Below, in pieces: positions 20,958 to 24,480 of a stretch of DNA of 26,852 nucleotides (the stretch's first letter is position 1; every line of letters begins with the position of its first letter). Origin of the DNA: a virus (lineage: Duplodnaviria > Heunggongvirae > Uroviricota > Caudoviricetes); the IMG/VR virus record IMGVR_UViG_2778261537_000020, positions 1-26,852 of that record, one strand, 5' to 3'. Below the pieces are notes generated by a model. It saw only the letters and a list, made by a program, of their open reading frames with translations, was not told the origin of the DNA and ran no database searches. Both the position numbers and the translations under genes were made by a program.

Positions 20958-21973
20958 AGATCCACCCCGTAAATCCAGTCTGTGTTTGTCAGGTCGAGTT
21001 TTGGTTTGCTAGCTGTCACGCCTGCCTGTTGCTTGTTACGGTTGATTTCGAGTTGGGTCCACTTGTCGCGGAGTTTGGCCGGACTTAGCACGTTACCGGA
21101 CCAGAAGTTGTCCTGGCATGCCCAGCGGAACAGCACGCACATGTCGCGGTGGTTACGTCCGTCACGTTCACGCATCAGGCGGATATCGTTAGCCCACCCT
21201 GCAAAATTCGGTTTTCTGGCTGATGGCGCGATGGTCTTCACCATGTCAAACATCCACTCTGCGGCGGTCAGGTCTTCTGCTGTCCCCCACTTGCTGCCGC
21301 TCTGAATTGCAGCATCCGGTTTCACCACAGGAAGATCGTTTTCTGGTTGGTCAGAGGATTCGCCAGAATTCTCGGACGAAAAAGGTTTTATATTGTCTTT
21401 TGTTAGTTTGTCTTTTGTGTTTACCTGATTCGGGTAAACGCCTTTACCTGATTTGGGTAAACTTTTTTTACCTGATTCAGGTAAATTTACCTCTTTCAGG
21501 TAAACTTTATTTTTCTTACCTGATTCGGGTAATGTTGACCATTCACTGACCACATTATTAATGCCGGTATTCCGCCCGCTCTGAATAAAAATCCCACGCT
21601 TTACCAGAACACTTTTTGCAGCAGAACACTTGTGCGGCAATATCCCGGTTAATTCGGAAAGTTGCTCGTTGCTAACCCAATCCAGTTTTTTATTAAAGCC
21701 ATATGTTTTGCGCATGACAGCCAGAAAGACCAGAAGCTGGTGCTGTGTTAATCCGGCCAGCATCACAGCTTCCAGCAACTCATTTGCAATGCGCGTATAA
21801 CCATCATCGAGATCTGCCACGCGCGGCTCCTTTTGTGCCGCATCCGGCACTGGAAAATTGAATATCTCAGCAGTGTTTGCCATAATTCCTCCCGCAATGA
21901 GTGTGTTACGATTTGCACCTGAAAGTCGGTTCTGTTCCAGCAGACCGGCTTTCGCCATTTCTGAACCTGTCAT
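20954..21973 (-). CDS. O: Replication initiator O (lambda-O-like C-terminus; divergent iteron-binding N-terminal domain); real start may be the internal Met at ~21883
   Basis: C-terminal ...AGWANDIRLMRERDGRNHRDMCVLFRWACQDNFWSGNVLSPAKLRDKWTQLEINRNKQQAGVTASKPKLDLTNTDWIYGVDL matches lambda O; N-terminal ...VADLDDGY...LTQHQLLVFLAVMRKTYGFNK...; iterons lie inside the gene. Confidence 0.85.
   Translation of the reverse strand: MTGSEMAKAGLLEQNRLSGANRNTLIAGGIMANTAEIFNFPVPDAAQKEPRVADLDDGYTRIANELLEAVMLAGLTQHQLLVFLAVMRKTYGFNKKLDWVSNEQLSELTGILPHKCSAAKSVLVKRGIFIQSGRNTGINNVVSEWSTLPESGKKNKVYLKEVNLPESGKKSLPKSGKGVYPNQVNTKDKLTKDNIKPFSSENSGESSDQPENDLPVVKPDAAIQSGSKWGTAEDLTAAEWMFDMVKTIAPSARKPNFAGWANDIRLMRERDGRNHRDMCVLFRWACQDNFWSGNVLSPAKLRDKWTQLEINRNKQQAGVTASKPKLDLTNTDWIYGVDL
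21421..21534. repeat. ori: Replication-origin iterons: five ~19-bp imperfectly palindromic repeats (consensus ttacctgattcgggtaaac) inside O
   Basis: Copies starting at 21421, 21444, 21468, 21487 and 21516; encode the repeated LPESGKK... peptide of O. Confidence 0.7.
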
Positions 21974-22509
21974 ATCGCCCCCAGCATGGTAGTAACCATC
22001 GCCATCAATGGACCAGCCAGATCTGGGTCCACACGAAACATCGACACAATACCTTCACTAATTTCCTTCAGTTTCTGGTGGCGTGGTGCGTTGAGAATGA
22101 CAGCCTGTTTTGCCTCACTGAGTTCCTTTTCCATTTCAGCCAACCTAGCCATGAAGCTATCCTGCTCAACCAGGTAACCGCGATATTCCAGCGGTAGTAC
22201 CGCCAGAATTGCCGGGGTCAGTTCACGCACGTTATTTCGGTATTTTTCAGAATCGAATTTGTTATCGAGGAAGCGGAACAGCTTCTGGCGTGCACGGCTG
22301 ACATCATCAGGGAAATCGATGGTGCCGCCGCCCTGCTCCCGATACTCATTCACAATGAGTGTGGCAACGACATCCTGATTATCTACAGCCGACCAGGCGC
22401 GGACGGCATCACGGATTTTTTCGTGGCCTGGCACCTGTTTTGTTTGAGAACGATTTATCACCGCAGTCGGGCTAAATCCGCTAGTCTGTTGGTATGTAAG
22501 TGGTTGCAT
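21970..22509 (-). CDS. CII-like/YdaT-like early regulator (hypothetical; family assignment tentative)
   Basis: 179-aa ORF between cro and O in the cII position; stop overlaps the O ORF start (ATGA). Confidence 0.4.
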   Translation of the reverse strand: MQPLTYQQTSGFSPTAVINRSQTKQVPGHEKIRDAVRAWSAVDNQDVVATLIVNEYREQGGGTIDFPDDVSRARQKLFRFLDNKFDSEKYRNNVRELTPAILAVLPLEYRGYLVEQDSFMARLAEMEKELSEAKQAVILNAPRHQKLKEISEGIVSMFRVDPDLAGPLMAMVTTMLGAI

Positions 22510-22578
22510 AATTGACTCCTTTAGTTTGAATTGACTGTTAAGTTGATTGCTTATTGTTAAAGAGCGTGAAATGGAAAT

Positions 22579-22809
22579 TTAAGCTGCGTTCTTTTCGGTG
22601 TGTGGAAACAACTTCGGAAGATCCGGGCGAATCTGGTATGCCTTCACTACTCCACCAGTAGCCGTAACAATGCTGCCGACATGTTCAGGGGATACCTTTG
22701 CTTTGTTGTGAAGCCACTTATAGACGGCCTGCTGTGAAACTTCGCAAGCAGCGCCCAGTTTCTTTTGTGAACCAACGATATTGATCGCTGTTTTGATAGC
22801 TGGGTTCAT
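22579..22809 (-). CDS. cro: Cro-like HTH repressor (YdaS/Cro family)
   Basis: 76 aa; HTH ...GSQKKLGAACEVSQQAVYKW...; divergent from cI; GGAGG RBS. Confidence 0.7.
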   Translation of the reverse strand: MNPAIKTAINIVGSQKKLGAACEVSQQAVYKWLHNKAKVSPEHVGSIVTATGGVVKAYQIRPDLPKLFPHTEKNAA

Positions 22810-22836
22810 AACAACCTCCGTGGTTAATTTGAATCA

Positions 22837-22870
22837 AGATTAAAACTATGGTTGTTTTTAGTCAACAACC
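22837..22870 (-). promoter_or_regulatory. Putative pR (-35 TTGACT, 17-nt spacer, -10 TAATCT on minus strand) overlapping an operator palindrome GGTTGTT-N7-AACAACC
   Basis: Palindrome ggttgtttttagtcaacaacc at 22850-22870; promoter hexamers read from the reverse complement upstream of cro. Confidence 0.4.
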
Positions 22871-22878
22871 ATTTTCGT

Positions 22879-22916
22879 TTGATGGAATAAAACCTTGGTT
22901 GTACATTTGGACTATG
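22879..22916 (+). promoter_or_regulatory. Putative pRM-like promoter giving a leaderless cI mRNA (-35 TTGATG, -10 TACATT, ATG 7 nt downstream)
   Basis: Hexamers at 22879-22884 and 22902-22907 with 17-nt spacing; ATG at 22914 has no obvious Shine-Dalgarno. Confidence 0.3.
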
Positions 22917-23603
22917 AAAACAACACTCTCAGAAAGACTTAAAGAAGCCAGATTAGCGCGAGGCCTTACACAAAAGGCGCTTGGGGATTTGGTCGGGGTT
23001 AGCCAGGCTGCTATTCAGAAAATCGAAACAGGGAAAGCTAATCAAACAACTAAAATCGTGGAGATCGCGAACGCTTTGGGTGTGCGCGCAGAATGGTTAT
23101 CTTCTGGCGTTGGAAATATGTCAGACAGTACAGTGCAACCAATACAATCAACTGTCAGCCATTCCAAATACTTCAAGATTGACGTTCTTGATATAGAAGT
23201 CAGTGCTGGGCCGGGAGTCATCAACCGTGAGTTTGTAGAAGTTCTACGCTCGGTTGAGTACTCGTTTGACGATGCTCGTCACATGTTCGATGGTAGGAAG
23301 GCGGAAAATATCCGCATCATTAACGTGCGTGGTGACAGCATGTCAGGAACGATCGAACCAGGTGATCTGCTGTTCGTTGATATCACAGTTAAATCTTTCG
23401 ACGGTGATGGTATCTATGCGTTTCTGTACGACGACACAGCCCATGTAAAGCGCCTGCAAATGATGAAGGATAAGCTGCTGGTCATCTCTGATAACAAAAG
23501 CTACTCACCGTGGGACCCGATCGAGAAAGACGAGATGAACCGGGTGTTCATCTTCGGTAAGGTTATTGGGAGCATGCCGCAGACATATAGGAAGCATGGG
23601 TAG
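22914..23603 (+). CDS. cI: CI-type prophage repressor (N-terminal HTH, C-terminal LexA/S24-like autocleavage domain)
   Basis: MKTTLSERLKEARLARGLTQKALGDLVGVSQAAIQKIETGK... HTH; C-terminal ...VRGDSMSGTIEPGDLLFVD...VKRL...; track ORF starts 22 codons upstream at 22848. Confidence 0.85.
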   Translation: MKTTLSERLKEARLARGLTQKALGDLVGVSQAAIQKIETGKANQTTKIVEIANALGVRAEWLSSGVGNMSDSTVQPIQSTVSHSKYFKIDVLDIEVSAGPGVINREFVEVLRSVEYSFDDARHMFDGRKAENIRIINVRGDSMSGTIEPGDLLFVDITVKSFDGDGIYAFLYDDTAHVKRLQMMKDKLLVISDNKSYSPWDPIEKDEMNRVFIFGKVIGSMPQTYRKHG

Positions 23604-23724
23604 TACCAATTAAAAATTATCAACTGGGCATTGTGCTCATTCAGTAAAGAACTAATTCCTATCTTTGCTCTAGGTAGTAATATTAAGCCACCGCAATAAT
23701 ATCTTTACCTAACGGCGTAAGAAT

Positions 23725-23751
23725 CCCGGTCACCGTGCCGGGTTTTCTTTT
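23725..23751 (+). terminator. Intrinsic terminator-like hairpin plus T-run downstream of cI
   Basis: cccggtcaccgtgccggg followed by ttttcttttg. Confidence 0.4.
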
Positions 23752-23888
23752 GCCCTCCCCTCATCACACACACCGTTAAAAAAACCACCATAACCTCGCT
23801 TCAGTTATCGCTATGCGATTCAAGTCACAAAATAAATCCATCCTAAATACAACCAGTTATATCTAAAACAACCAATAAAACAACTTTT

Positions 23889-23921
23889 GTTGTTGACGAT
23901 AAAACAACTATAGTTTTAAAT
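23889..23921 (+). promoter_or_regulatory. Putative pL (-35 TTGACG, 17-nt spacer, -10 TTAAAT) overlapping an operator palindrome GTTGTT-N8-AACAAC
   Basis: gttgttgacgataaaacaac at 23889-23908; same architecture and spacer motif (aaaacaac.atagttt) as the putative pR. Confidence 0.4.
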
Positions 23922-24114
23922 AAGTTCATCGCAACAACACAACGATACGGCAACTACCTGATTCACCGTTGCGATGACCGCTTAGATCCGCAGTTTGAAT
24001 TTCAGCAGGCTTCGGGGAGTGCGAGGGGTGAAACGGACGCGTGAACGTCGGTGTGACCAGCTGAAATTAACTCAACATTTCATACCTTAGTCGCTTTAAC
24101 GAGGCGGCTTAGTT

Positions 24115-24405
24115 ATGACAACCGGCGGCCATCCACCGCCTGAATACGCGCAGAAGTCTCTATATGTTCAGCAGCCCAGCTTACGGGCAGGAGTTTTTAT
24201 GGTTCATCAACATTATGGAACGCAGACCGTTAATCGAGGTGCGGTCATGCCAGGAATGCTGGTCAAACACAAAGATGGTACCTGGACTGCATCAGCTAAT
24301 TTACGCGGACGGCTTTATCTGCATCGCGGCATCGAGCGCACTTATACCCGTGATTTGCTCGTGGAAGTTTTTCTCGACGGACGCGGTAACGGCCTGAATC
24401 ACTAA
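24115..24405 (+). CDS. Hypothetical early-left protein in the kil/cIII position (frame uncertain; a 77-aa ORF at 24164..24397 overlaps in another frame)
   Basis: 96-aa ORF immediately upstream of gam; no recognisable family. Confidence 0.3.
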
Positions 24406-24480
24406 TCCCCTTTCCTGTTTTCCTAATCAGCCTGGCATTTCGCGGGCGATATTTTCACAGCTATTTTCAGGAGGTCAGCC

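Follow-up and report, generated by a model that had tools for sequence, protein, structure and literature searches.

Among described immunity switches, those of phages lambda and 434 and of the cryptic prophage CP-933P come closest to the one considered here. In lambda the operators are 17 bp long and of the TATCACCGC type, the starts of pR and pRM are 82 bp apart, OR2 is at -42 and the -10 hexamer of pRM lies 6 nt before the ATG of cI. The S24-type cI repressors and the 434 repressor act as dimers on dyad sites, and the curated record of phage 434 lists six operators, each of 14 bp and of the form ACAA-N6-TTGT. In CP-933P of E. coli O157:H7, which carries PaaR2, YdaS and YdaT, the PR and PRM promoters diverge from a 97-bp spacer, the repressor gene is leaderless and operators that match are found at the PL promoter (PMC8630535; PMC9986795).

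The window analysed here is a stretch of 26,852 nucleotides from a virus of the Caudoviricetes (positions 1 to 26,852 of IMG/VR record IMGVR_UViG_2778261537_000020) and is the early region of a lambdoid phage or prophage. The region 22500-24120 within it is an ordinary lysis/lysogeny (immunity) switch of a very common E. coli lambda-like prophage. Its arrangement is that of the lambda promoter geometry built with probable 434-type operators. In our reading, which is founded on homology and comparative sequence evidence, a LexA-type cI with a 434-like helix-turn-helix (HTH) domain and a YdaS-type Cro very probably compete for 14-bp operators of the form W-ACAAC-N4-GTT(G/T)T-W.

Genes and proteins of the switch

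The neighbours of the switch are of lambda type, with the replication genes O and P, together with ren, leftward of it and the recombination genes gam, bet and exo rightward. cI and cro are divergent, with a spacer of 104 bp between them (22810-22913, read from the sequence); the one encodes a repressor with an HTH domain and an S24 autopeptidase and the other a small HTH Cro. The immunity switch claimed by the original prediction from the same DNA is borne out by these domain assignments. Coordinates of the genes and of the predicted sites are collected in Table 1.

Table 1. Genes and predicted regulatory features of the switch region, in order along the window
Feature	Position	Strand	Evidence or remark
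YdaT-family protein, 179 aa, in the position of lambda cII	21970..22509	-	Pfam YdaT_toxin E 8.5e-30
cro, 76 aa, YdaS/P22-Cro-type HTH, recognition helix VSQQAVYKW	22579..22809	-	Pfam YdaS_toxin E 4e-17, P22_Cro E 8e-5
cro Shine-Dalgarno sequence, GGAGG on the minus strand	22815..22819	-	sequence; kept in relatives
Predicted pR: -35 TTGACT (22865..22860), 17-bp spacer, -10 TAATCT (22842..22837)	22837..22865	-	sequence
Putative OR1, ACAACCATAGTTTT (minus strand), inside the pR spacer, touches the -10	22842-22855	-	PWM 21.0 bits, best in window
Palindrome 1: OR1 inner half (GGTTGT), 9-bp gap with most of the pR -35, OR2 inner half (ACAACC)	22850..22870		
Putative OR2, ACAACCATTTTCGT, weaker site	22865-22878	+	PWM 15.5 bits; centre -42.5 from cI ATG
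Predicted pRM: -35 TTGATG (22879-22884), 17-bp spacer, -10 TACATT (22902-22907)	22879..22907	+	sequence; predicted +1 at 22914
Putative OR3, ACAACCAAGGTTTT (minus strand), inside the pRM spacer, one base in common with the -10	22889-22902	-	PWM 19.8 bits
cI repressor, 229 aa	22914..23603	+	Pfam HTH_3 and Peptidase_S24
Terminator-like hairpin and T-run downstream of cI, CCCGGTCACCGTGCCGGG TTTTCTTTTG	23725..23752	+	consensus match only
Possible weak OL3, ACAACCAGTTATAT, one good half-site only	23849-23862	+	PWM 7.6 bits; tentative
Putative OL2, ACAACTTTTGTTGT, perfect 5-bp arms	23880-23893	+	PWM 15.2 bits; the pL -35 begins with the last T of OL2
Palindrome 2: OL2 inner half (GTTGT), 10-bp gap with the pL -35, OL1 inner half (ACAAC)	23889..23908		
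Predicted pL: -35 TTGACG (23893-23898), 17-bp spacer, -10 TTAAAT (23916-23921)	23893..23921	+	sequence
Putative OL1, ACAACTATAGTTTT, inside the pL spacer	23904-23917	+	PWM 20.2 bits, second best in window; 24 bp from OL2

The N-terminal domain of cI is a 434-like HTH with the helix VSQAAIQKI. A phmmer search of the PDB with this domain returned dh434 (E 1.7e-9), the 434 repressor (E 4.5e-9) and 434 Cro (E 2.7e-7) and gave no match to lambda cI at E 1e-3, while by BLASTP cI is 37% identical to 434 cI over 65 aa (E 2e-15). The domain is homologous to the DNA-binding domain of the 434 repressor, which came out nearest when the HTH of cI was compared and whose operators are 14 bp. The C-terminal part is a LexA-type S24 autopeptidase, in which the Ala-Gly of VSAGPG, the serine of GDSM and the lysine of VKRL are visible; an S24 autocleavage domain in cI is a feature common to lambda. 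The likeness to 434 has its limits, however. The recognition helix reads SQAAIQK here and TQQSIEQ in 434, and at the four helix positions that we take to be the base-contacting ones in 434 there are three changes (Q29A, S30A, Q33K). With identity at 37% and three of four contact positions different, the homology argues for the geometry of the sites and not for their sequence. There is also no DNA similarity, and no nucleotide match, to phage 434.

Cro differs from its 434 counterpart in belonging to another family, the YdaS/P22-Cro type, and a YdaT-type protein replaces CII. The Pfam matches of Cro also include HTH_3, its ATG is at 22809-22807 on the minus strand and the nearest solved structure is that of a Cro protein (3bd1). 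The recognition helices of cI and Cro begin alike (VSQAAIQKI and VSQQAVYKW, the latter being VSQAAVQKW in Salmonella phage UPF_BP1), as they do in 434 cI and Cro, and this fits a competition of the two proteins for the same sites. Lambda too differs from the locus in these genes, Cro and the CII analogue here coming from other families, and no rexAB follows cI.

With its YdaS-type Cro and YdaT-type CII analogue the locus resembles CP-933P, whose YdaT was shown to be a functional equivalent of CII (PMC9986795); the YdaT-family ORF of the window is labelled cII in phage records. CP-933P differs in its repressor, PaaR2 being described as part of a toxin-antitoxin operon and not as an SOS-cleavable cI (PMC8630535). 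The operators of CP-933P were considered as a precedent for the YdaS-type Cro found here and were rejected; they are 18-bp palindromes with the consensus GTTTAGTAA, unrelated to ACAAC-N4-GTTGT (PMC8630535). A search for the CP-933P YdaT site, TTGATT-N6-AATCAA, gave 29 matches with up to three mismatches against 22 expected, which is not significant, and there was no convincing match to a site of this type between cro and ydaT.

Other elements of a lambdoid early region were looked for around the switch. Apart from one distant match to IS009, which is not in the switch, an Rfam scan of the whole window returned nothing. The pL leader (23928-24114), folded for put- or nut-like RNA, had a z-score of 0.14, no better than shuffles, and no N-like gene was recognised after pL.

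Palindromes and probable operators in the window

The original prediction had placed the operators in two palindromes built around GTTGTT and AACAAC, one in the cI-cro spacer and one on the other side of cI. Both are present in the DNA. Within the 26.8-kb window GTTGTT-N6..9-AACAAC has two matches, 22851-22869 and 23889-23908, where the shuffle expectation is 0.01 and 0 of 100 shuffles reach two. Palindrome 1 reads GGTTGTT-TTTAGTC-AACAACC and its arms can be extended to 9 bp (ATGGTTGTT...AACAACCAT, 22848-22872).

A terminator scan lists 22848-22872 on both strands, with a 9-bp stem, a 7-nt loop and a T-rich tail, and the palindrome might on this ground be taken for an RNA hairpin or a bidirectional intrinsic terminator instead of a protein site. 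This is extremely improbable, since the segment lies upstream of both predicted transcription starts and would be transcribed from neither, the stem has only three G-C pairs, and its sequence is the half-site of all the other operator sites, which form no hairpins. In the relatives described below the half-sites are kept, whereas the extension of the arms is not always so.

The unit that is repeated and conserved appears not to be the palindrome but a 14-bp sequence of the 434 type, ACAAC-N4-GTTKT. Its copies lie over the back-to-back promoters in the spacer, and a second cluster is found at pL beyond cI. The consensus of the putative operators is W-ACAAC-N4-GTTKT-W; the centres of the oR sites are 23 and 24 bp apart and the oL pair is ~1 kb away. 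ACAAC-N4-GTT[GT]T occurs at four places only in the window, all of them in oR or oL, and the two 200-bp bins of the window that are richest in ACAAC are oL and oR. All five sites begin with ACAA, and the far end is TTGT in OL2, TTTT in OR1, OR3 and OL1, and TCGT in OR2. Judged by sequence they would be dyad operators of the ACAA-N6-TTGT kind, with OR3 and OL2 forming 14-bp palindromes on their own.

A PWM was trained only on the oR sites of the relatives and then applied to the window. Its top five distinct matches there are OR1, OL1, OR3, OR2 and OL2, in that order (Table 1). In 20 shuffled windows the best score had a mean of 12.8 and a maximum of 16.3, and the scores of OR2 and OL2 are no better than the best matches in some of the shuffled windows. 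These two scores are not individually significant, and OR2 and OL2 are supported by where they lie and by their conservation. A search for a third strong OL site yielded no more than a weak candidate (23849-23862). Its start is 31 bp ahead of that of OL2, the same offset as the phage 434 annotation gives for OL3 and OL2.

The sites have the 434 plan in several respects. They are 14 bp long with ACAA at one end and TTGT or TTTT at the other. The spacer, of ~104 bp, accommodates three OR sites at intervals of 22-24 bp; OR2 borders directly on the pRM -35, and the pRM spacer is occupied by OR3 as far as the -10. In sequence they differ, being ACAAC(C/T)... here and ACAA(G/T/A)... in 434; C is invariant at position 5, and most second halves read GTTTT. 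Neither the recognition helix nor the operator sequences are thus those of 434, and the specificity would accordingly not be imm434. A further difference is that pR is shifted by one operator unit, its spacer holding OR1 here and OR2 in 434.

Lambda provides the closer parallel for the placing of sites relative to promoters. OR1 lies between the -35 and -10 of pR, OR2 is at the pR -35 (it overlaps the first base) and is centred near -42 of pRM, and OR3 lies over pRM. The predicted starts, at ~22830 leftward for pR and at 22914 rightward for pRM, are ~84 bp apart as against 82 in lambda. The operators themselves, at 14 bp and with an unrelated sequence, are not those of lambda, and in this the original prediction of a specificity differing from lambda seems to have been right.

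Comparison across relatives

Nine relative loci, representing eight other genera, were compared, from Kosakonia, Enterobacter, Samsonia, Izhakiella, Erwinia (two), a Klebsiella phage, a Providencia phage and Salmonella phage UPF_BP1. They were chosen for a cI helix that is identical to VSQAAIQKI or nearly so, with 53-75% identity in the N-terminal domain by tblastn, and being homologous regions they owe part of their conservation to shared descent. A protein search with the N-terminal domain (93 aa) returned mostly truncated entries, which served solely as seeds for the locus scans. Yersinia phage YP3 was excluded because its upstream layout is different, and relatives of the Kluyvera/Citrobacter type (helix VAQPTIWRL), whose operators are different, were not used. 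The same YdaS-type Cro is present in eight of the nine, where it has been inherited together with the N-terminal domain of cI; no cro ORF was found in the Samsonia locus.

The 14-mers begin at -72/-73 (OR1), -49/-50 (OR2) and -25/-26 (OR3) from the cI ATG in the window and in eight of the nine relatives, and in the Samsonia locus only the -25 site of oR is kept. OR2 reads ACAACCATGTTTGT in Erwinia tracheiphila. At the same offset as in the window, four relatives (Izhakiella, Erwinia, the Providencia phage and Samsonia) have an OR3 that forms a perfect ACAAC-N4-GTTGT palindrome. The PWM also finds an OL2/OL1 pair, 23-24 bp apart and beside TTGAC, in seven relatives, whose oL regions had no part in its training. 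Of the seven relatives whose oL could be read, most have as OL2 a near-perfect palindrome in the position that it has in the window; it is weak in Samsonia and has a GTTTT half in phiEt88. Across 45 sites N4 never varies, and the length of 14 bp and the frame are invariant. Information in these sites is confined to positions 1-5 and 10-14 and a W on each flank, in a profile for which the choice and orientation of sites were set by hand, which inflates the left half-site.

An alternative, and the model of the original prediction, is that each palindrome of 19-25 bp is one operator for one repressor dimer, with one main operator for each lytic promoter. The palindromes are exact, are unique in the window and overlap the -35 of both pR and pL, and the exact form GTTGT-N9-ACAAC is kept in seven of the nine related oR regions. 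The 14-bp operators account for that retention, since OR1 and OR2 invariably match the consensus in their inner halves; their outer halves (AAAAC, TTCGT) are invariably degenerate, and the same is true of OL2 and OL1. The spacing within the palindromes, on the other hand, is not constant. It is N7 at oR and N8 at oL in the window (N9 and N10 when counted from 5-mers), and in most relatives as well oL has one base more than oR, whereas in Izhakiella the two are equal at N9 and in phiEt88 the oR spacing is itself one base longer (N10). In UPF_BP1, where OR2 is flipped, the oR palindrome is gone and all three 14-bp frames persist. When up to one mismatch per half is allowed, the nine oR regions contain the N4 frame 25 times and GTTGT-N9-ACAAC 7 times. 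There is, moreover, no copy of the palindrome at pRM or OR3, so that a site is missing where the regulation of pRM needs one, and OR3, the outer halves and the motif common to the pR and pL spacers are left unexplained. Finally, with half-site centres 14-15 bp apart, two HTH domains like those of 434 would, on the evidence of 434 repressor-operator structures, not sit on one face of the helix. We regard this model as unlikely.

As N4 is invariant, the longer spacing varies and the UPF_BP1 oR lacks the palindrome, the two palindromes are most likely composites of adjacent 14-bp operators, in each of which two neighbouring operators would face each other with their inner halves, on either side of the -35 of pR or pL. 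The conserved asymmetry between inner and outer halves is left unexplained by a simple 14-bp model. There is perhaps a slight chance that the composite palindrome serves as a second binding register, in which Cro or a cI tetramer would clamp both inner halves in a state mutually exclusive with occupation of the 14-bp sites, so sharpening the switch. If true, operators would here be used in a way that has not been described for lambda or 434.

It has also to be considered whether the repressor or Cro reads arrays of single ACAAC(C/T) half-sites, direct or inverted, as monomers or flexible oligomers. In most sites one half is much better conserved than the other, and there are additional lone ACAACC half-sites, both upstream of OL2, in the window and all relatives though at varying offsets, and over the cro Shine-Dalgarno sequence (22811-22824). 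Such a mode of binding is quite improbable, however, given that at the fixed N4 distance the other half, GTTKT, retains 0.9-1.8 bits at each position over the 45 sites and that repressors of this kind act on dyads as dimers.

Promoters and the start of cI

The hexamers given in the original prediction for pR, pL and a candidate pRM are all found in the DNA, and the three promoters lie where it had put them. The motif aaaacaac(c/t)atagttt that it noted in both the pR and pL spacers is present as well, and is none other than OR1/OL1. A generic scan for sigma-70 consensus promoters listed none of pR, pL and pRM, because their -10 hexamers match TATAAT at only three to four of six positions. The description of the cro promoter as good can therefore be upheld for its position and its conservation in relatives but not for its consensus score, the -10 being weak. 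In the eight relatives that keep this oR, the aligned segments have a pR -10 of the form TAnnnT at the same position (TATTCT, TATATT, TATAGT, TATTAT, TATAAT). The positions of the pRM hexamers are conserved in 10 loci, and TTGAC stands directly 3' of OL2 in all relatives. For pL there is an alternative -10, TAAATA, with an 18-bp spacer.

In two phage records cI is annotated as a protein of 251 aa with its ATG at 22848, inside palindrome 1, whereas RefSeq PGAP calls the start of the 229-aa protein, with its ATG at 22914-22916. The latter is favoured by the PGAP call itself, by the fact that most cI homologues begin with MKTTL, and by an in-frame stop at most three codons upstream of this ATG in five of 10 loci. 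The start at 22914 adopted in the original prediction is right, and the annotation of 251 aa is over-extended; the correction applies to the cI entries of the phage records.

The pRM -10 ends 6 nt before this ATG, and the seventh base after it is the A of the ATG. All 10 loci have a -10 of the form TAnnnT, at 6 nt from the ATG in nine and 7 nt in one, while the 6 nt between the two are not conserved and no properly spaced Shine-Dalgarno sequence was found there in any of the 10. The -10 is thus placed for a start at the A of the AUG, which supports the prediction of a leaderless cI mRNA beginning at 22914; the earlier claim to this effect fits the comparative data. A leaderless cI, with the -10 at this distance, would be a further likeness to lambda and a difference from 434, in which cI has an 18-nt leader and a ribosome-binding site.

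Probable working of the switch

From the positions of these sites and by analogy with lambda and 434 we infer the binding partners and their order, the cooperativity, the activation of pRM and the starts of transcription. Dimers of cI would occupy OR1, a strong site within the pR spacer, and with it, through cooperative binding, the weak site OR2, so that pR would be shut. Bound at OR2, cI would be expected to stimulate pRM, because the site has its centre at -42.5 and lies immediately next to the pRM -35, and the transcript would start at the A of the cI AUG to give the leaderless mRNA. OR3 overlaps the spacer and the -10 of pRM and would for that reason shut pRM, either at high concentrations of cI or when bound by Cro. 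OL1 and OL2 would shut pL in a like manner. Autocleavage of cI at the Ala-Gly of VSAGPG, induced in the SOS response, would then relieve repression.

Distribution and significance

Of 5426 complete E. coli genomes, 1521 contain the segment made up of oR and the N-terminal part of cI, as do at least 80 IMG/VR viral contigs. In the literature no published characterisation of this specificity and no paper defining its operators was found; the switch is a canonical lambdoid one whose specificity is very common. A correct model of the operators would tell which prophages are homo-immune. The locus also offers a test case for the retargeting of a 434-like DNA-binding domain, from ACAAG/T to ACAAC, and suggests that 434-type operators can be combined with the lambda promoter geometry, with a leaderless cI and with a YdaS/YdaT pair that stands in for Cro and CII. 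The general understanding of such switches is unchanged by these results.

By nucleotide comparison 22500-24120 is 99.9% identical to Escherichia phages PhiR34_1 and Turner. Inducible phages with this immunity type, these two and others, are recent deposits.

Distribution of the switch

The segment carrying oR (the right operator region between cro and cI) and the N-terminal part of cI (22790-23130) is widespread in Escherichia coli, being carried by 1521 of 5426 complete genomes, almost always as a single copy and with an identity of at least 95% in all but one of the carriers. Only six isolates in the phage collection had it, and judged by their accession numbers these look like recent deposits.

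Probable domain exchange and the start of cI

In many other coliphages, among them 4A7, D2 and Perceval, only the C-terminal half of cI is shared. The ~95% DNA identity found there (23565-23603 region), set against N-terminal domains that are only 54% identical, indicates from sequence comparison that recombination has occurred between the DNA-binding and the oligomerisation/cleavage domains of the repressor. The PhiR34_1 and Turner records annotate a cI of 251 aa, whose start ATG lies within the operator region. A 229-aa protein beginning MKTTL is the choice of RefSeq PGAP and of the majority of homologues, and half of the relatives (related switch loci from other genera) have an in-frame stop shortly 5' of that start. 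The 22-codon N-terminal extension (22848-22913) is probably an annotation artefact.

Additional operator-like sites

Beyond the five main operators, a fourth operator-like 14-mer was found beside cro (see table) with counterparts in most relatives, e.g. ACAACCTCCGTAGT and AAAACCTCCGTTGT. Either a weak site that acts on cro or mere conservation of the ribosome-binding site could account for it. Lone ACAACC half-sites 5' of OL2, an operator at pL, were seen in the window (23849-23881) and again in every relative, though their distance from OL2 varies. The outer half-site begins 31 bp ahead of OL2, an offset equal to that of OL3 to OL2 in phage 434, and may be a weak OL3. Within cI itself the 14-mer ACAACTAAAATCGT (23046-23059) scored 12.6 bits and falls on the conserved QTTKIV codons; a better one, ACAACCAAGATTGT, occurs in the Samsonia locus at the same offset (+132). 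Conservation of the protein probably accounts for the site inside cI.

Minor sequence features around the switch
Feature	Sequence	Position	Location
Fourth operator-like 14-mer	ACAACCTCCGTGGT	22811-22824	Covers cro Shine-Dalgarno, adjoins cro ATG; OR1 is 31 bp away
Lone ACAACC half-site	ACAACCAGTTATAT	23849	Upstream of OL2, starting 31 bp before it
Lone ACAACC half-site	ACAACCAATAAAAC	23868	Upstream of OL2
Repeat, two copies	AATTGACT	22510-22517, 22529-22536	69-bp cro-ydaT spacer
Further spacer element	GTTGATTG	22542-22549	69-bp cro-ydaT spacer
Terminator-like hairpin		23725-23742	cI-oL interval

Flanking regions

The place of lambda cII is occupied by a YdaT-family protein (region 21970-22578). 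The elements in the spacer between its gene and cro might be the binding sites of this protein or a pRE-like promoter; the YdaT site of CP-933P, TTGATT-N6-AATCAA, is absent as such. On the other side, ~245 bp without a called gene (23604-23850) separate cI from oL. As PhiR26_1 has an inserted gene in this interval and other relatives have rexA/rexB, it looks, on these comparisons, like a moron insertion site. From pL to gam (23922-24480) neither an N-like antiterminator gene nor a nut/put-like RNA was recognised, and the pL leader folded no better than its shuffles (z 0.14). The sole ORFs there, 24115-24405 (96 aa) and 24164-24397 (77 aa), matched no Pfam family. Distant from the switch, the window also contains a match to Rfam IS009 (RF02111; 218 bits) at 2732-2930 on the minus strand.
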